A program made the position numbers and the translations under genes. Source: a virus (lineage: Duplodnaviria > Heunggongvirae > Uroviricota > Caudoviricetes). From it: a DNA stretch of 55,611 nucleotides. The stretch is from IMG/VR virus record IMGVR_UViG_2778261256_000006, positions 1-55,611 of that record. One strand, given 5' to 3'. This document shows positions 2,098 through 28,377 of the stretch, piece by piece. The number at the start of each line of letters is the position of its first letter. Position 1 is the first letter of the stretch. The notes beneath the pieces were generated by a model, which was not told the origin of the DNA, did not search any database, and was given only the letters and a program-made list of their open reading frames with translations.

Positions 2098-5816
<3,719 letters not shown>

Positions 5817-18345: not shown

Positions 18346-18765
18346 CTACTTTGCGGCGTCTAACAATAAGCCGCAATTTTCGCTCATGTATGCCGCAGTT
18401 GCCGGATTGCCTCTGTCATTATTCGAATTGTTCATTTCAGGGTGAGCGTCCCAGGCCACTGATTCCTGAGATGATAGATAGACGGCAAAGTCGACGATTT
18501 CATCATCTCCGGTTTTAACGTTGCCAAGCAATTCATTTGCCTTTCTCCAGTGCTTCAGCGCGAGAATTCTGAACTGTTTTGCATTTTCAGCAGGCACTGC
18601 ACTGGATTTGTCTGTGTAGATATTCGATATGTCGGCATAAAGAGCGCATTTAACATAGCTGGTTGCCCTGCCGGTCTCTTTAAAACCTTGCTCTGTGTTG
18701 TTGGCGTAGACATTCACAGCAAAAGCGCTGGCAATTCCCAGCAATATAATTTTCTTCATCATCAT
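18346..18765 (-). CDS. secreted hypothetical protein (signal peptide)
   Basis: MMMKKIILLGIASAFAVNVYA signal peptide; 139 aa. Confidence 0.55.
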   Translation of the reverse strand: MMMKKIILLGIASAFAVNVYANNTEQGFKETGRATSYVKCALYADISNIYTDKSSAVPAENAKQFRILALKHWRKANELLGNVKTGDDEIVDFAVYLSSQESVAWDAHPEMNNSNNDRGNPATAAYMSENCGLLLDAAK

Positions 18766-18936: not shown

Positions 18937-20622
18937 ATGAATACAGCCCTTTCCATCATTGACGCTATCACTCCAAACACTGATATCGACTACCGGCAGG
19001 AAATGAACGTTATCCACGAAATTGTGGCCGAGTGCGAGAAAGAGATCGCATTCATGCATCAGGTTCACGACTTCGTTTATGGCGACGAACGCCACAGCAT
19101 GATTAACCGTCTGCTGCGACTCAACCACCGGCCGGATGACGAGCGCACACGCTTTAACAGAGCCTGGTTGGACAAAGTCGACCTGGAATGGGTGAAACAG
19201 AACATCTGGGCTGAATACTGGAAGAAGGTCACGGATATGACCAACGTTCTGCTGATCATGCCAGCATCCCGCCGCGACGAGTGGCGTGAACAGTTTATCG
19301 AGGGCAAGCAGGAAACGATCAAGACTGACAGAACTGGCTATCAAATGAAGGTTAAAGAGTTCGTTGGTGTACCTGAGTTCAAAGCAGAAACGGTCATACC
19401 AACGATGCTTAATTTGCTGAATGACAGGCACAAATATCTCTCTGAGCGCGTGTATGGCTTGTTTAAGGCGTTGAGTCCTGCTCACAAGACCAATAAGACG
19501 AACGGCTTCAGCGAGCGTCTGATCATCGCCGACTGCATTTCCGATTTCTGGCGGGACAGCGTCAGCGTTAACTACCGGAAAGAGGATTACATAGACGACC
19601 TGCGCGTCATGTTGCATTTCTTTGCACACAAAGAATTTATCACCATCAACCGCACGGCCGAGATGCTGTCAGCTGCGTATCGAGCAAATGACTGCCAGAC
19701 CGGCGACTGGATGAATGTCGACGGAAACCTGATGCGTGTGAAGATGTTTAAGAACGGCAACGTTCACTTTGAAATACATCCTGACGTAGCCTGGAAGCTG
19801 AATGAGGTGCTGGCTTACAGTATGCCTGCAGCAATCCCGGCGCCATGCCGTACTGCACCCAAAACACGGGCACCAAAAGAGTTCGGGTTAATCCAGAAGA
19901 CGATCTCCGAGCCGGTTCGTACCGCGCTGCGCGACGGGCGATTCAGCAAAGATAAAGGCGTCTGGTACTTCTCTGATTCCAACCTCCAGAAGTCGCAGGT
20001 GGAAGAGCTTGAGCGCACACTGAACTTCATTGGCGGCGTGCAGGAGAAAAAGCACTGGCAGTTCCCGTATGAGATCGGCCATACGCTCAATACGATTGTG
20101 GCCACCGGCTTAATACCGGATACAAAATCACACCAGTTCTACCCTACCCCGCGTTTGATAGCGGAGTACGTTGCCAGAGCCATCGAGCTGAAGCAAGGTG
20201 AGAAGCTGCTGGAGCCTGAAGCCGGGCGCGGAGATCTGCTGGCCTGCATCGACGCCAATCCGGAAGACGTTACCTGCATAGAAGTCGCACCTCTCTTCGC
20301 TGATATCCTGCTTGGCAAGGGGTACACAAATACGGTCTGCTGCGACTTCATGAAGTGGTCTGAGGACAACGCAGGTTATCAGTTCGACAAAATCGTTATG
20401 AACCCGCCCTACTCTCTTGGCCGTCACAGAGAGCATACGCTGGCCGCGCTGGAGCATCTTAAAGTCGGCGGGCGACTGGTGGCTGTATTGCCTGGTGATG
20501 CGCCAGTTCTGAACTGGATGTCGCTGGATAATTACGTTTATGCCAAAGGGAAGTCGTTTACTGACGAGTTTGAAGACACCGGGATTACTGTCAGCGTATA
20601 CGTTTTTAAACGCGTTAAATGA
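18937..20622 (+). CDS. DNA N6-adenine methyltransferase (orphan) with large N-terminal domain of unknown function
   Basis: C-terminal SAM-binding motif I (LEPEAGRGDLL) and catalytic NPPY (VMNPPYS); about 380-aa N-terminal extension; no cognate endonuclease adjacent. Confidence 0.75.
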   Translation: MNTALSIIDAITPNTDIDYRQEMNVIHEIVAECEKEIAFMHQVHDFVYGDERHSMINRLLRLNHRPDDERTRFNRAWLDKVDLEWVKQNIWAEYWKKVTDMTNVLLIMPASRRDEWREQFIEGKQETIKTDRTGYQMKVKEFVGVPEFKAETVIPTMLNLLNDRHKYLSERVYGLFKALSPAHKTNKTNGFSERLIIADCISDFWRDSVSVNYRKEDYIDDLRVMLHFFAHKEFITINRTAEMLSAAYRANDCQTGDWMNVDGNLMRVKMFKNGNVHFEIHPDVAWKLNEVLAYSMPAAIPAPCRTAPKTRAPKEFGLIQKTISEPVRTALRDGRFSKDKGVWYFSDSNLQKSQVEELERTLNFIGGVQEKKHWQFPYEIGHTLNTIVATGLIPDTKSHQFYPTPRLIAEYVARAIELKQGEKLLEPEAGRGDLLACIDANPEDVTCIEVAPLFADILLGKGYTNTVCCDFMKWSEDNAGYQFDKIVMNPPYSLGRHREHTLAALEHLKVGGRLVAVLPGDAPVLNWMSLDNYVYAKGKSFTDEFEDTGITVSVYVFKRVK

Positions 20623-20684: not shown

Positions 20685-21374
20685 ATGAGCAATCTTCCGT
20701 TAGAGCGTTTTAACGTCAAAAGCCATGCCGACTTTCCTTTCAAATTTGTAATGAGAGGTTATGCAGAGGAAGCAGTAGGCCAGATCATCATTGACAAAGG
20801 CATTGTTAAGTTTGAAGGGGATTATGATGAATCCGCGAAAACATTCATAGACTTCGTTGCTAAACGTTGGAGCGAGCAATGGAGAGACCTGGAAAAACGT
20901 GCTCGTGAATTTGATACATTCATGTCTGCAATTGATACAGCAAAAACGGCTCTGGCTGCGGGTACTCCGTTAGATTTGGAGTCTCTGTTTAAAGGTGAAA
21001 TGGCCTCTGCGATGTTCGCAACCATGTTTGCCGGTGAGTTTGTTCGTAGCGGGGCCAGAAACTACCTGGAGCTGGGGTACGACGTTCCTGAAATGGGTGA
21101 GTTTACCGTCACCATTCAACGCAAAGAAGGTAAGGCTCCTGGCGAACGTATCGCTGAACTTGAGGCCGTTGTGGATCAGCGTAATGGAGAATGTGATCGT
21201 TTGGTCAACGAACTTGATGCTCTCCGGGAAGAGAAAATATGCACGGGTAGCAACACACGCAATGCAGCGGATATCTACTTCCAGTTAGTTGAGGAATGCC
21301 AGATCCCGCCAGGCGGCTCTTTGGTTGAGTATGTTCGCGAATTGCAGGAGAAAGGAGAGAGGTGCGCGGCATGA
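20685..21374 (+). CDS. hypothetical protein
   Basis: 229-aa ORF; coiled-coil-like C-terminal region. Confidence 0.5.
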   Translation: MSNLPLERFNVKSHADFPFKFVMRGYAEEAVGQIIIDKGIVKFEGDYDESAKTFIDFVAKRWSEQWRDLEKRAREFDTFMSAIDTAKTALAAGTPLDLESLFKGEMASAMFATMFAGEFVRSGARNYLELGYDVPEMGEFTVTIQRKEGKAPGERIAELEAVVDQRNGECDRLVNELDALREEKICTGSNTRNAADIYFQLVEECQIPPGGSLVEYVRELQEKGERCAA

Positions 21375-21652
21375 ATGACCTGCTTGTCGAGCGAGCCTCC
21401 GCTTTTGTTAAGTCCTCGCTGGACAATCCCCTCACCCGCGGTGAGCAGATGGAGCTGGCAAGGTGGTTTCTGCATATCCATGAGCAGATGGAAGTTTTTA
21501 AACAGTTGCCGGATCTGCCCATTACAGACGGCCATGTTCAGCAAGTGATTAACAGCCACGAAAAAGGCTGGGCGATGATTGTGCCGTGCAAAATTACCTA
21601 CGAGCTGGCTAAGGAAGTGCAGGCTAACAGAGCAAGGAGTAAGGAAGAGTAA
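21371..21652 (+). CDS. hypothetical protein
   Basis: 94-aa ORF overlapping the upstream stop. Confidence 0.45.
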   Translation: MNDLLVERASAFVKSSLDNPLTRGEQMELARWFLHIHEQMEVFKQLPDLPITDGHVQQVINSHEKGWAMIVPCKITYELAKEVQANRARSKEE

Positions 21653-21654
21653 CT

Positions 21655-22371
21655 ATGAAGTTGGGTAATGCCGTTTCGCTGTTTTTTACAGCATTACTGG
21701 AAGGTTTCAATTATCGCTTTTGTCCGGTCTGGGATAAGGCGCTGGATACGCTTATTGAGGTGCGAAATGGGATCGCGCTGTTTGAGCGCGACGCCCAGCT
21801 ATATGAAGTGTTCGTCGGGGCTGGCTTCAACCACTTCGGGCATCTTATTAGCTTGAATAGTGGAACCGTAGAGATGCAGATCGCGGCGCTTCTGCATGAT
21901 GTGGTTGAAGACACCCATGTCACCATAGAGATGGTTCGTGAGCACTTCGGTGAGCGCGTAGCCGAAATGGTTCTGGCTCTGACCAACATTGCCAGACCAG
22001 AAGACGGCAATCGAATACAGCGTTTCATCATCAACGTCCGGGAGCTGCAGCAAAGCCTCGACATGCAGACGCGCATGATCAAGCTGGCTGACCTGCTGGA
22101 CAATACCTCTTCTATTGTGAGTCGCGACCCTGAGTTTTCAGCCATCTATCTCGCAGAGAAAGAGCTGATGCTGGCCGTACTCTTTGACGGCAAGGAGATT
22201 GGTGCCGATGCCGGCGTTGTCGAGTACCTGGAGAAAAAAGGTATAGAGCATTCGTTGCTGATAAACGCCCGGGCGATGGTGACGAAAGGCATTGCCAGTC
22301 TGCAACCGGTACACACCAAACGTTATGAAAAACACAAAGCGCTGATCTGGAACGCGTGGGAGGCTGCATGA
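21655..22371 (+). CDS. HD-domain (p)ppGpp hydrolase-like protein (small alarmone hydrolase, SpoT/Mesh1-type HD domain)
   Basis: HD motifs HFGHLISL, AALLHDVVEDT, FGERVAEMVLALT, IKLADLLDN match the RelA/SpoT hydrolase-domain signature; no synthetase domain. Confidence 0.7.
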   Translation: MKLGNAVSLFFTALLEGFNYRFCPVWDKALDTLIEVRNGIALFERDAQLYEVFVGAGFNHFGHLISLNSGTVEMQIAALLHDVVEDTHVTIEMVREHFGERVAEMVLALTNIARPEDGNRIQRFIINVRELQQSLDMQTRMIKLADLLDNTSSIVSRDPEFSAIYLAEKELMLAVLFDGKEIGADAGVVEYLEKKGIEHSLLINARAMVTKGIASLQPVHTKRYEKHKALIWNAWEAA

Positions 22372-22919
22372 AGGTCGAGAAATTAGATGTTCTTTCCTTT
22401 GTGCTGACGGATCTGGAACGTCTCGACCCGGTACGCGTAATGATTGAAAACTACGAGCCGGGCAAGGGAAGAGTCACCATCACCTGCTATGGGAAAGCGT
22501 GGACTGCTGCCTGGTTCGCGATGGGCGGTGACGATGTGCAGACGTTTATTAAGCGAATGAGCAACGATTATTTGATTGGTTGCCTCGACCCTCAACTGCG
22601 AAGCACGGTCGACGATGACAACGACGCAAATCTGCTTTTCGTGAAATCCGAAATCATAAAGTTACGCAGGGAGAGAGAAATCGACGCGGAACAGGCCCGC
22701 AATATGTGGGACGAGGCAGAAAACGCTGATGACGTAAAAGAAAGTTGCTGCTGTTTCGGTGTCGGTAACGAACTGCTGAGTCTGTTTGGTGACGATCCGT
22801 GGTATGCCGGTTGGCCAACGGTGCCAAACCCCAAATACCAATACCTGGAGCGTATCTTGAACGCGGTACGTGATGGGCTGAAAGAGCTTCACGATCAGGC
22901 GAGAGAAGCAATCGGTTAA
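22368..22919 (+). CDS. hypothetical protein
   Basis: 184-aa ORF overlapping the upstream stop; acidic. Confidence 0.45.
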   Translation: MKVEKLDVLSFVLTDLERLDPVRVMIENYEPGKGRVTITCYGKAWTAAWFAMGGDDVQTFIKRMSNDYLIGCLDPQLRSTVDDDNDANLLFVKSEIIKLRREREIDAEQARNMWDEAENADDVKESCCCFGVGNELLSLFGDDPWYAGWPTVPNPKYQYLERILNAVRDGLKELHDQAREAIG

Positions 22920-22957
22920 GTGCTATAGTCAGGCGCTTTTATATTTATGGAGTGAAT

Positions 22958-23656
22958 ATGAAAAATATCCTACTGGCATCATTGTTGGTGGCATCGCCGG
23001 CTGCTTTTGCAGCTAGCTTTGACTGCCAAAAGGCTTCGACAGAAATCGAACACAAAATCTGCGATAACGAACGCTTGTCAAAATTAGACGAACAACTTAG
23101 CTCTACCTATTCCAACGCACTCAAAGCAAACCCGGGGGACGCAGACACCTTAAAGACGGTTCAGCGTCAGTGGGTAAGTATGCGTGGAAAACTCACTGGT
23201 GATAAGGCTCTGGAGCTGGCTTATCTAATCCAAATTAATGGCCTCAAGAGTTTGGATGGTTCGGCCAGCACAGCGGTGGTCAATGAGACACCGAAGCCGG
23301 TGCAGAAACAGCCTGAAGTTCAAGAAAAGACAAGTAAGGCAGACACAAAGCCGGCTAAGAGCGGTAATGAGCTAACTCTGGAGTCATTCCGAGCTAAGTA
23401 TATTGAGATTGATGGTGAGTACTACAGCACAACATCTCTTCCTAGAGGGAGTTCGTTCTTATTCACCTGCGCCAGTCGCATTGCCGATGACCAAGTTAAT
23501 GTCTGGAAGAAGCACGCGGCAAAAGAGGGCAAGATCGACCTTTTCTTTGAGCTTGAGAGCCGAATACACACCGCGATGCTGAATGCCAATTTTCAGAAGC
23601 TGAATAGTGATTTAACTAAAACAGGCATTTGCGATCTGATTACCGCTGTTCCGTAA
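22958..23656 (+). CDS. secreted DUF1311/LprI-like (lysozyme-inhibitor-like) domain protein
   Basis: Signal peptide (MKNILLASLLVASPAAFA) followed by FDCQKASTEIEHKICDNERLSKLDEQL..RQWVSMR, typical of DUF1311. Confidence 0.6.
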   Translation: MKNILLASLLVASPAAFAASFDCQKASTEIEHKICDNERLSKLDEQLSSTYSNALKANPGDADTLKTVQRQWVSMRGKLTGDKALELAYLIQINGLKSLDGSASTAVVNETPKPVQKQPEVQEKTSKADTKPAKSGNELTLESFRAKYIEIDGEYYSTTSLPRGSSFLFTCASRIADDQVNVWKKHAAKEGKIDLFFELESRIHTAMLNANFQKLNSDLTKTGICDLITAVP

Positions 23657-23663
23657 GCCAGAT

Positions 23664-23684
23664 AAGGCCACTATTTGTGGCCTT
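23664..23684 (+). other. hairpin AAGGCCAC..GTGGCCTT (repeated element, copy 1)
   Basis: Inverted repeat after the stop; related copies at 29538 and 30009. Confidence 0.5.
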
Positions 23685-24102
23685 AAACAATTTGTTTAAT
23701 TAGTGGTGTAATTATTGGAATCCCAGGCGAACTAAATCCATTGGGCAGAACAGATCTTCCACACCTTCGATAGACACGCAGTCAGAGCGGCGTAATTGTT
23801 CTTCTGATTTGCCTTCCCCACTGATTTCTCTGATTACTCCCGTTGCGCCATTCATTGCCACCATGACATGGCTGCCGATAGTGATAGCATTACGGTTTCG
23901 ATCATACGTCTTTATCGTTTCCTCCTTTCACATGGGGCAAATCAGGTTTCAAAAATTGCCGTTTTCCATGTATATGCGATTTGCAAAATATCAATTTCCT
24001 AAACAAATTGTTTTCACCCGCTAGTTATTACACACAGGCGAAGTTGACCGCGCTTCATATAAATATCACTGTCTATACATACAGTGTATAAGGGGAAAAA
24101 AA

Positions 24103-24369
24103 ATGGGCGGAAAAGACTCAAGCTATCAGATCGTTTACAGAGGTGAGACGCTCGAAAACTTTAAACCGGGGCAGTATGTCTTCTTTCAACGAGCGAAGGA
24201 GTATGGCGGCGGATATTGGTTGGGCAGGACTCATGAAGATGGGTTCGAGTTTTTGCTGGAGGAGCCAACCTCGCTGGGAAGAGGTTTTGAGTTTCTGATA
24301 ACTCACTCGAGCGTGGAGGCCAGATTTATGGAGTTCGTCGACGATGCGGACGACTTCAAACTCACCTAA
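24103..24369 (+). CDS. hypothetical protein
   Basis: 88-aa ORF with upstream operator-like motif. Confidence 0.45.
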   Translation: MGGKDSSYQIVYRGETLENFKPGQYVFFQRAKEYGGGYWLGRTHEDGFEFLLEEPTSLGRGFEFLITHSSVEARFMEFVDDADDFKLT

Positions 24370-24454
24370 TCATCCCTTAAATATCTTGTTTTCTGCCTTT
24401 TGTTATTTGAGATAATAACACCAATTAGAAAACAAGTTGTTTAAGGAATCATCC

Positions 24455-24691
24455 ATGTTTGGAACCGCAAAAGAGCTTATCGAAAAGCTGGAGAACTACC
24501 CAGAAGACGAGCCGCTGCTGATGGTTGTGTGGCATAAGGAAGACGTAGGCGAAGTACGCCCAGACCTTACTGACTATCAGTGCGCCCAGGTCTTGCGCAG
24601 AATCAAAGAGTGCCATGATGCCAATATCGGCGTGAATTGGGACGTTATCTCTGACACGGCCGACATCCTGTTTCCGAAGGAGAAGGCATGA
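24455..24691 (+). CDS. hypothetical protein
   Basis: ATG 8 nt after an AAGGA RBS that follows the operator-like motif; 78 aa. Confidence 0.5.
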   Translation: MFGTAKELIEKLENYPEDEPLLMVVWHKEDVGEVRPDLTDYQCAQVLRRIKECHDANIGVNWDVISDTADILFPKEKA

Positions 24692-25008
24692 TGCTGACAT
24701 TGAAAGAATCCTATAAGACCGCAGTGATCAGCACCGCCCATGTCACGGCCAAAGACTCCGAGCAGCTGCCTGTCGTGTGCTTTGACCCGTTGACCGATCG
24801 CGGGTTGAATTGGGTACATGGTACACAGTACGGCTGGATTGTTCGTGCTGGAATGCGAGGGAATGACTGGAAAGAAGAGCTGCGTGAGTATGGCATTTCC
24901 GAAGAGACGATCTCCAACATACAGACCATAGTGGATGCCGGGTATGATTCGGTACAATTTGACTGTGATGCGGAGCTGGTGGATGGGATGCCAGCATGGA
25001 ATTGGTAG
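24688..25008 (+). CDS. hypothetical protein
   Basis: 106-aa ORF overlapping the upstream stop. Confidence 0.5.
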   Translation: MMLTLKESYKTAVISTAHVTAKDSEQLPVVCFDPLTDRGLNWVHGTQYGWIVRAGMRGNDWKEELREYGISEETISNIQTIVDAGYDSVQFDCDAELVDGMPAWNW

Positions 25009-25023
25009 ATATAACTACTAGCA

Positions 25024-25650
25024 ATGGCGGGAATAATTACCTGGAAAGTTGATATCATATACCCGCTTGTATTTCAAAATGGAATGGATGTAATGGAAAT
25101 CGATACTTTAGAAAAAAAATCAGTTAAAAACCTCTACGCGTGGCTTATAGCAATACTGCCGTTTGTTGTCAGCGTCCCCCCTGCTGAGTACGACAATTAC
25201 GTTATGGTGATTTCGTTCGTCATTGGGCTTGGACTGCTGGTCGCCGATCGCATGAATTTGACTGAGGCAGGCTATGAGCCACCATCATTCTTATGTGGGT
25301 TCTTTATCCCCCCTGTGTATCTCTGGAAACGAGCGACGGTTCTTGGAAGTAACCGACTGCTGTTTATCGTATGGATTGTTGCCTTTGCTGCATCATTTTT
25401 CGTGTATAGCTTCAACGCAGATTCAGCGCTTGAAGAAGCTGCTTGCCCTATAGTTACCACTATTCTGAAAGAAAATAACGGTTCAGAAGCATCTAAATGC
25501 ATGAAGGTAACAATTCAGGACAAAGTGACGGACAAGTTCTACAAAGCCACGGCTACACTGGATAACGGTAATGACATTAACATCACTATCGAAATGATCG
25601 GTGACGAGAATTTCTACGTTCGCGTGCCTAATTACTACCTAAACGACTAA
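25024..25650 (+). CDS. membrane protein (multiple TM segments)
   Basis: Hydrophobic segments (LIAILPFVVSV, MVISFVIGLGLLVA, LLFIVWIVAFAASFFVY). Confidence 0.5.
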   Translation: MAGIITWKVDIIYPLVFQNGMDVMEIDTLEKKSVKNLYAWLIAILPFVVSVPPAEYDNYVMVISFVIGLGLLVADRMNLTEAGYEPPSFLCGFFIPPVYLWKRATVLGSNRLLFIVWIVAFAASFFVYSFNADSALEEAACPIVTTILKENNGSEASKCMKVTIQDKVTDKFYKATATLDNGNDINITIEMIGDENFYVRVPNYYLND

Positions 25651-27150
25651 CGGCTGCAACTCGTTGACATTGGCGGTCACAAATTGAGGATTTCTATAAG
25701 AGTCCGTTGATCGCCACTTCCCCCACCTCTCCAACCTACCCCAGCCCAGGGGTGACAAGGCATTTAAGCCAATTACACCCATAAGAAAACAAATAAATAA
25801 CACGTCAACGAAAAGTCAACGCTTTCCTCTGATTTGGTCTAAAAAGTTGACGTTTTCGCAAGCCATCTCTTATACCCAAAATCCTGCGCACCAGAATCCA
25901 TCTCCCTGCGACCAAAACGTCAAAAACGACTCGTGATATCACTCAAAAACAGAAGCGCTCAGAAGCGCTCCCGTTGCGTTATATTGGGCATCTAAACAAG
26001 TTGTTTTCAGGAATAAGAAAACAAGTTAACAACCCCCACAGGAAACCCAGAGACGCCATTACCCACAATCCCGGAAACACCCACCTCTTCCTGTCAGACT
26101 ACCGAAAAGACCCACCTCATTGCCCCAGGCTACAGACCACCCACCTAATATTCCCAGGCAACCGAGAACGCGGTTCGCACGCGCAAACCCCGATACGTCA
26201 TTACCCAATACACGGAGAAGAACAGCCAGAACGAAACCCCGGACAAACCCAGACAAGAACAGGAGCCGTCACAATCTCGTTTACCCACCATTACCCCGAA
26301 AGAGAGCGCAAATTCCTGAATAGCAGGGAACGCCATTACTTCATATGCGGAGAACAACTAAAGCGCCCTACTGCCATTACCCACACTTTCATCATTTCAC
26401 GTAAACGAAGAGAAAAGTGCACCTGCCATTACTCCATACACGGAGAAGAACACTCACCAAAACGACGAGAACAACCCAGACGAAAACACAGAGAAGAACC
26501 ACCTCAAGAAGAACGAAACCACATATGCCGGTAGAAAGAACAAACCACCCATTTCACCCAAAGGAATACTCGCCGTATAGAGCGTTATCAGAGGGAAGGT
26601 TTGTGCCCACATAAGAGAGAAAATTCGTGGGAGGTATAAGTGGGAAGGGAAGGAGGGGTATCGCTACTTTCTCCGTATAAATTCAAGCCATAGTTTTCGT
26701 CCCCCGTAACGTCCCTTTCCACCCCTTCGGTCAGCCTTCGGGCCATCCAGGGAAAAGGCTGGAGGTTTTCAGGGAAACGGTGGGAATCCCGCTATACGAA
26801 CCGGGAAAAGCTGGCTGCCGGTCGGGAAACGGGTACATCCCGGTACAGAGCGAGGGACGACTGCGGGAGCGGTGCGGGAAATCTTCGGGAGTGCGCCTTG
26901 CTCTTCGCTCGCCTGAAAATCGCGAGGGAGTGTCGTTCCCTCTCGTGCAGCTGCTGAACTCCATTCTGCCAGACCATCCTCGGGTCTCAAGCGATTTCAG
27001 TAGGTTTTCGGGGAGAAGAAAATTCTGCCCACCAGCCCTGCGGCGCGCGTAGAGCAGAATATCGTAAATACTGGTTCCCGTGTCGTTCCCGGATATTCAC
27101 TGCCCAGCCTGGCTTTCACGACATAAAATCCTTTTTCGCCTTTGTCTTAT
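25650..27150. repeat. 1.5-kb non-coding stretch rich in degenerate short direct repeats
   Basis: No convincing ORF (only low-complexity frames); repeated CGTCAACG/CGTTGAC, CCATTAC..ACGGAGAAGAACA (x3), CCACC-rich and GGGAAAHGG units. Confidence 0.55.
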
Positions 27151-28065: not shown

Positions 28066-28377
28066 ATGAATACTTCATTGGTGCTGGGTCTTGCTGAAGG
28101 CCAGGAGAGAAAAGAAAAACCAACCTTAATGGGGCATCTCACATTGCTGGATATCGTAGCGAATGGGACTTCTATCCGTCTGTTTCGTGAAAAAGCCATT
28201 ACCTTCGACGCGGGCAATTTTACGCGCTATGTGATGGTAGTTCGTCGCCAGCGTGGAAGAGGGTGGATGTCGGTCCAGAAAATGTGGCCAGAGGACCAGC
28301 TTGAACTGGCGCTGATGGAAGCCAACCGTGTCGCCCAACAAGAGATCCAACGAGCGTCTGTTCAGGCGGTAGCTTAA
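28066..28377 (+). CDS. small hypothetical protein
   Basis: 103 aa; operator-like motif then RBS; followed by a terminator. Confidence 0.5.
   Translation: MNTSLVLGLAEGQERKEKPTLMGHLTLLDIVANGTSIRLFREKAITFDAGNFTRYVMVVRRQRGRGWMSVQKMWPEDQLELALMEANRVAQQEIQRASVQAVA

Follow-up and report, generated by a model that had tools for sequence, protein, structure and literature searches.

We find that the open reading frame at positions 21655-22371 of the window, the 55,611-nucleotide stretch of viral DNA analysed here, encodes a chimera in which the N-terminal part of an unrelated protein precedes the truncated remainder of a small alarmone hydrolase. The chimera lacks motifs of the hydrolase family and the allele is unique to this DNA. 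The frame is very probably a strain-specific deletion remnant of the gene encoding PaSpo, one in which the deletion is real and the activity has been lost. The gene itself is a known one, residing in a known type of element; the intact ancestral form would specify an enzyme with the RelA/SpoT hydrolase fold, a 3'-pyrophosphohydrolase that depends on Mn2+ and acts against toxSAS toxins. The case calls for caution, as the database name of the protein and a reading of its motifs both suggest a working anti-toxSAS or alarmone hydrolase, and it is the relatives that reveal a chimeric remnant.

The frame lies on the plus strand, extends from ATG to stop over 238 codons and carries all the peptides quoted in the original prediction, which had read the same 238-residue protein from the sequence. 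Residues 70-160 match the Pfam family HD_4 (PF13328) with 43.8 bits (E 2.9e-11), above the gathering threshold of 27.2 bits; the match begins at profile position 36 and spans positions 36-133 of 156. For the intact orthologue the same profile gives 68.9 bits over positions 2-133. The name 'HD domain-containing protein' given in databases stems from this partial HD_4 match. The NCBIfam spoT_relA subfamily model also matches the chimera (E 3.2e-15), and the nearest solved proteins by sequence in the PDB are the hydrolase domains of Rel and SpoT, MESH1 and bacterial small alarmone hydrolases (SAHs). A domain search with the chimera returned HD_4 and HD only, and no RelA_SpoT synthetase domain. 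Assignment to the SpoT/Mesh1-type family, as a stand-alone small alarmone hydrolase without a synthetase domain, is thus borne out. Three of the peptides proposed as its HD signature, AALLHDVVEDT, FGERVAEMVLALT and IKLADLLDN, are genuine motifs of RelA/SpoT-homologue hydrolases. The fourth, HFGHLISL, occupies residues 59-66, inside the part that is identical to the upstream hypothetical protein, and comes from that unrelated gene. PHROGs likewise splits the chimera: residues 1-74 match phrog_16975, of unknown function (E 8.2e-23), and residues 70-234 match the C-terminal half of a 'metal-dependent phosphohydrolase' family.

In plasmid CP057716.1 and phage SSU5 the single reading frame of the window corresponds to two genes. 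In CP057716.1 these encode a 117-aa hypothetical protein (4056-4409 of the locus, here L001) and then a 213-aa HD-domain protein (L001 4501-5142); in SSU5 they are SSU5_098 (123 aa) and SSU5_099 (213 aa, annotated as 'metal-dependent phosphohydrolase'). All the relatives matched align with the query in two pieces and span approximately 370 bp more than the window does. Pairwise blastn and inspection of the junction place the segment absent from the window, 370 bp relative to CP057716.1, at L001 4261-4630. The junction, 21859|21860, is blunt and without microhomology, and no flanking repeats, sought there as a cause of assembly collapse, are present. Because 370 equals 1 modulo 3 and the two genes lie one frame apart, the deletion joins them in frame. 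In its first 68 residues the chimera has exactly the sequence of residues 1-68 of the upstream 117-aa hypothetical, and its residues 70-238 have exactly that of residues 45-213 of the intact HD protein of CP057716.1; the grafted N-terminal segment matches no Pfam family. Neither a second hydrolase gene nor the missing 370 bp in another place was found within the window.

The 370-bp blunt deletion took the last 49 codons of the upstream hypothetical together with its terminator-like hairpin, which has a 10-bp stem, then the intergenic region with the hydrolase's own ribosome binding site and a conserved palindromic operator-like site, and finally the first 44 codons of the hydrolase, encoding MSRISKAHMFAAGAHGGVGQKRKYTGEDYINHPIAVREIVAWHG. 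The product consists of 68 foreign N-terminal residues, the junction serine and hydrolase residues 45-213. The Shine-Dalgarno-like sequence AAGGAAGAG in front of the chimera is native to the SSU5_098-type gene, and with this strong signal inherited the chimera is probably translated. The retained part of the hydrolase shows no mismatch to its closest relative, CP057716.1, and the deletion is therefore recent. The features of the locus, of the other disrupted alleles and of a recurrent palindrome are listed in the table.

Table. Features of the hydrolase remnant, its neighbours, other disrupted alleles and palindromic sites; positions are those of the window except where a locus of a relative (L004 to L009) is named.
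Feature	Position	Strand	Basis or product
229-aa protein (phrog_8364), function unknown, intact	20685-21374	+	gene call, PHROGs, relatives
93-aa 'Eaa-like' protein, function unknown, intact	21371-21652	+	gene call, relatives
Shine-Dalgarno-like AAGGAAGAG	21641..21649	+	5 nt 5' of ATG, sequence reading; same in relatives
Codons 1-68, N-terminal part of unrelated hypothetical (SSU5_098 / HVX25_24435 family, phrog_16975)	21655..21858	+	identity to L001 gene
Junction codon 69 (AGT, Ser)	21859..21861	+	blastn and junction inspection
Codons 70-238 and stop, PaSpo-type residues 45-213	21862..22371	+	identity to L001 protein
phiTE_072-family gene, 183 aa	22368..22919	+	gene call, PF26211, phrog_3451, relatives
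AAA_28 fusion	L004 5001-5561 (E. coli GCA_023705225.1, JAJLNB010000023.1); also L005, L006		186 aa
229-aa-homologue fusion	L007 5001-5621 (Enterobacter hormaechei GCA_035794835.1, 110-kb contig)		206 aa, no Pfam match
Stop allele	L009 764-1183 and 1202-1405 (Citrobacter freundii NZ_CP114568.1)		
Palindrome sites (13 bp each)	16742, 17713, 18912, 23685, 24001, 24430, 25994, 28042, 29690, 30175, 39024, 39049, 49043, 51972		

The family is characterized by six catalytic motifs, in which the arginine of HD1 serves base stacking, the histidine of HD2, the His-Asp pair of HD3 and the aspartate of HD5 are Mn2+ ligands, the Glu-Asp pair of HD4 acts in nucleophilic attack and the asparagine of HD6 contacts the base (PMC9293644). 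The HD1 arginine corresponds to R44 of RelSeq and R24 of RelHCg, and the HD2 histidine to H34 of RelHCg; the R44Q exchange abolishes hydrolysis by RelSeq and R32Q of RelHLl is among the inactive mutants, yet the SAH of P. aeruginosa has leucine at the HD1 position and is active (PMC9293644). In solved SAHs the N-terminal helices form a hydrophobic dimer interface (PMC9293644). Alignment of the intact protein to human MESH1, Lmo0812, SpoT and Rel begins at about residue 5 and sets its GQKRK...YINHP opposite QQRRK...YINHP of MESH1; this whole segment falls within the 44 deleted residues. So do R22 (HD1), Y24, Y29 and H32 (HD2), each found in 34 of 34 homologues in the alignment, as well as K23 (33 of 34) and H15 (32 of 34). 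In the column of R22 the chimera has a glutamate, and with H32 it has lost one of the four residues that ligate Mn2+.

The remaining motifs are in place. HD3 is represented by H81 and D82 (21895-21900) in AALLHDVVEDT, aligned with Rel, SpoT and MESH1, HD4 by E85 and D86 (21907-21912), and HD5 and HD6 by D146 (22090-22092) and N150 (22102-22104) in KLADLLDN. The residue following the HD5 aspartate is leucine, as in 32 of 34 family members, where elsewhere it is usually arginine or lysine; this leucine and a longer C-terminal helical extension distinguish PaSpo-type proteins from MESH1 and the SAHs. AlphaFold models the intact orthologue with a pLDDT of 97.1 and a pTM of 0.92, placing helix α1 at residues 3-17 and helix α2 at 31-42; the best structural matches of this model are MESH1, RelH, PaSAH and the hydrolase domains of SpoT or Rel. 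Both helices lie inside deleted residues 1-44, leaving the helical HD fold of the chimera incomplete. In the model of the chimera residues 1-60 have pLDDT values of 46-68, as against 89-98 for the remainder, and this model is a conservative test only, its N-terminal part being biased towards an HD-like fold by a misaligned homologue of the upstream gene (P0100) in the underlying alignment.

The chimera is thus devoid of α1, of the HD1 loop with the base-stacking Arg22 and Lys23, of α2 and of the HD2 residue His32, and with the N-terminal helices it has lost what serves as the dimer interface in solved SAHs. Given that α1-α2, HD1, HD2 and the dimer helices are missing, we infer that the chimera is most likely inactive, that is, catalytically dead and possibly misfolded, and that the gene is a recent pseudogene. 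The alignment of catalytic and Mn-binding residues, proposed as a check with the original prediction, finds HD3-HD6 present and HD1 and HD2 lost, and the view of this copy as a working hydrolase gives way before the loss of the HD1 arginine, the metal-binding HD2 histidine and α1-α2.

The hydrolase encoded by SSU5 has been described as PaSpo, a small alarmone hydrolase that constitutes a subfamily of RelA/SpoT homologues (Jimmy et al. 2020, PMC7229694). A single gene of SSU5 matches, SSU5_099 (YP_006906731.1), whose product is 98.6% identical to the intact form of CP057716.1, and homologous hydrolases occur in 268 phage records. Co-expression of PaSpo neutralised five of five toxSAS toxins, namely CapRel, PhRel2, FaRel2, PhRel and FaRel (PMC7229694, Table 1). 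PaSpo is said to counter FaRel2 by removing the 3'-pyrophosphate from tRNA (bioRxiv 10.1101/2024.07.05.602228); the direct demonstration, restoration of tRNA aminoacylation in vitro, is for MESH1 and ATfaRel. PaSpo is also in routine use to permit expression of CapRelSJ46 and PhRel2. The biology put forward for the frame in the window, neutralisation of toxSAS-type toxins, is therefore real for the gene family, but it is already published for PaSpo (PMC7229694), a routine tool against these toxins, and it does not carry over to this copy: neutralisation is a feature of the intact SSU5 protein and is not to be assumed for the fused one.

The locus of PaSpo has the same synteny as the window, with genes for a DUF4942 methyltransferase, the 229-aa protein, the Eaa-like protein, a 098-type protein, the hydrolase, the phiTE_072-family protein and LprI. 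Over window residues 70-238 the translation of SSU5_099 differs at 2 of 169 positions. Unlike PaSpo, the window copy is without residues 1-44 (α1, HD1, α2, HD2), without its own ribosome binding site and without the region upstream, and has 68 foreign residues instead. MESH1, the SAHs (RelH of C. glutamicum and L. levettii, and the SAH of P. aeruginosa) and Rel/SpoT share the HD_4 fold and HD3-HD6; the intact orthologue matches their structures with a Foldseek probability of 1.0 and TM-scores of 0.6-0.76, and their sequences with E values of 1e-11 to 1e-14. All the solved active enzymes among them have the N-terminal helices and the HD2 histidine, whereas the window protein has neither.

A question arises, is the deletion a property of the plasmid or of its assembly? 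The exact 238-aa protein, WP_097296299.1 ('HD domain-containing protein [Escherichia coli]'), is found on one contig only, that of the window itself, NNVY01000030.1 of the E. coli draft assembly GCA_002485945.1, and all its listings derive from NCBI, none from an independent assembly. By comparison, 110 contigs carry the intact 213-aa protein in the exact form of CP057716.1, and hundreds more carry close intact variants. Megablast searches covered 159 PLSDB plasmids with the two-gene unit and the 52 complete E. coli genomes that have the locus (5,426 genomes searched), and the deletion is in none of them. The exact junction sequence is absent outside the window from GTDB representative genomes, IMG/VR and JGI metagenomes, in a search whose positive control, the undeleted boundary, was found. 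A sole source in one draft-assembly contig, with two separate genes in every other relative examined, would fit an assembly or sequencing artefact, in which case the real plasmid carries both genes intact and a functional PaSpo. We regard this as unlikely. Assemblers usually drop sequence that lies between repeats and here the junction is blunt and repeat-free; the missing 370 bp are nowhere else in the contig; and independent deletions that end inside the same gene are real and are present on many contigs.

If the deletion is real, could the chimera nevertheless remain active? The chimera still has four of six motifs (HD3-HD6) and some 80% of the domain, a core that might go on binding metal. 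The retained part is modelled confidently by AlphaFold, although that confidence is a product of the alignment and not a measure of stability. The HD1 arginine is dispensable in the P. aeruginosa enzyme, which has leucine there (PMC9293644), and the chimera combines a good ribosome binding site with an in-frame fusion that keeps the downstream overlap and is compatible with some retained role. We nonetheless consider it very unlikely that the chimera is an alarmone or tRNA-pyrophosphate hydrolase with His60, His63 or a water molecule in the place of the missing ligand. Gone are two core helices, a metal ligand that all 34 homologues share and the helices of the dimer interface. His63, which MAFFT can align to the HD2 column, was rejected as a substitute, as its segment is identical to an unrelated gene. 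His60 and His63 lie 21 and 18 residues before H81 of HD3, outside the range of 23-31 residues that separates HD2 from HD3 in 128 proteins of the family (24 in 98 of them). Compensation by the graft was likewise dismissed: its sequence is unrelated, belongs to no Pfam family and is modelled at low confidence over residues 1-60. A new role for the product is a conjecture that is hardly credible: the fusion might act as a dominant-negative or decoy subunit, or serve mainly as a translated leader by which the phiTE_072 gene stays coupled after selection has removed a costly hydrolase. Such a role would accord with three independent in-frame fusions in different lineages, all of which keep the hydrolase C-terminus and the ATGA overlap, and with a premature-stop allele that is common; against it, a protein search finds in-frame fusions only, and the window allele is a singleton that shows no sign of spread while intact alleles dominate. 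The reading that best accommodates these observations is a deletion remnant on a draft-assembly contig, most likely without activity.

Other broken alleles of the PaSpo gene (P0002, P0040-42, P0045 with P0003) carry independent lesions with unchanged synteny downstream; they have other breakpoints and fusion partners than the window allele, and they are known from several to many contigs, the window allele from one. In one of them a larger deletion joins the first 31 residues of an AAA_28 ATPase in frame at 'EDTH', with loss of HD1-HD3. The product bears the database name 'AAA family ATPase' and occurs on 15 contigs, downstream synteny is unchanged, and the ATPase gene adjoins genes for DHFR, thymidylate synthase and Rep3. 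In a third in-frame fusion, about 68 residues of a homologue of the 229-aa protein encoded at 20685-21374 are joined at 'HVAEMV' (residue ~76), with loss of HD1-HD4; at this locus the DUF4942 gene is called as two reading frames of 324 and 207 aa. Another allele is interrupted by a premature stop, at codon 140, and yields a 139-aa 'HD domain-containing protein', which keeps all six HD motifs and is missing the C-terminal helices, and a 67-aa hypothetical. With the 139-aa product on 139 contigs and the 67-aa product on 273, this is a common allele.

In each of the three deletion fusions the frame is maintained and the ATGA overlap with the phiTE_072 gene is preserved, although they were found by a protein search that detects in-frame fusions only, a possible ascertainment bias. 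The 370-bp fusion, the AAA-ATPase fusion, the fusion to the 229-aa homologue and the widespread codon-140 stop make at least four independent lesions, and in the deletion fusions and the retained C-terminal frame of the stop allele the translated frame runs into the overlapping phiTE_072 gene. That PaSpo is repeatedly and selectively inactivated in SSU5-type phage-plasmids is a speculative reading, and one we consider improbable. Were it true, constitutive hydrolysis of alarmones or tRNA pyrophosphate would be costly in the plasmid (lysogenic) state, and the phiTE_072 gene would depend on translational coupling. Nothing in the locus opens a new question; these several independent disruptions in phage-plasmids are a mild lead, which, if they reflect selection, would inform on the cost of an alarmone hydrolase during lysogeny.

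Across the locus the DNA shares 92% identity with Salmonella phage SSU5 and 99.8% with the E. coli plasmid pRHB17-C02_4 (CP057716.1); outside it, the window is matched by phage-plasmids of the SSU5 type from Escherichia and Klebsiella. SSU5 represents an established type of phage-plasmid (PMC7969092), and the description of the element as a phage-plasmid is accordingly correct. A recent survey of clinical phage-plasmids does not mention the hydrolase gene. The block described as four genes, 20685-22919, does hold four in the window; in relatives it is a block of five. Its last gene, of the phiTE_072 family, starts not at GTG 22356 but at ATG 22368, overlapping the TGA of the chimera as ATGA, and is untouched by the deletion; from this overlap it is probably translationally coupled to the chimera.

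The N-terminal third of phrog_3451 (287 aa) matches residues 11-103 of the gene at 20685-21374, and its positions 101-285 match the whole of the phiTE_072-family gene at 22368-22919. As the phrog covers both, the two are one gene in some phages. The Eaa-like, 098-type and hydrolase genes sit between these halves in the window, an arrangement that suggests a cassette insertion or recombination between related N-termini.

Further upstream, the gene at 18937-20622 encodes a DUF4942 protein with a C-terminal N6-adenine methyltransferase-like region, matching phrog_6263, 'DNA methyltransferase' (E 6e-299); near the methyltransferase gene CP057716.1 has, on the opposite strand, a gene for a restriction endonuclease. 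Between a 190-aa gene and the methyltransferase gene the window has a 139-aa reading frame on the minus strand (18346-18765), whose product has a signal-peptide-like N-terminus, MMMKKIILLGIASAFAVNVYA, and belongs to no Pfam family. CP057716.1 has only about 140 bp at this place, and the frame looks like a small insertion of the moron type. Between 18889 and 21300, in the genes for the methyltransferase and the 229-aa protein, the window is about 96% identical to CP057716.1; of 91 mismatches in 2,971 bp, only 2 fall in the final 559 bp. To the right of the deletion junction (the 21301-26000 side) the identity is 99.95%, with 2 mismatches in 4,144 bp. This shift points to a boundary of mosaic recombination near 21300, separate from the deletion.

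The window also contains 14 distinct sites of a 13-bp palindrome, AAACAA-N-TTGTTT. With up to one mismatch allowed, 25 strand matches were counted against 0.16 expected, a number reached in none of 100 shuffles. The sites are mostly intergenic and often lie 11-22 nt 5' of start codons, examples being the ATG of the DUF4942 methyltransferase gene (18937) and the ATGs at 28066, 24455 and 17748. The palindrome looks like a candidate operator for a regulator of the phage-plasmid. In relatives one copy (L001 ~4433-4445) follows the terminator-like hairpin and precedes the intact hydrolase gene, the copy that was lost in the window with the deletion, and the unit of hairpin and palindrome recurs after the LprI-like gene (23664-23697).
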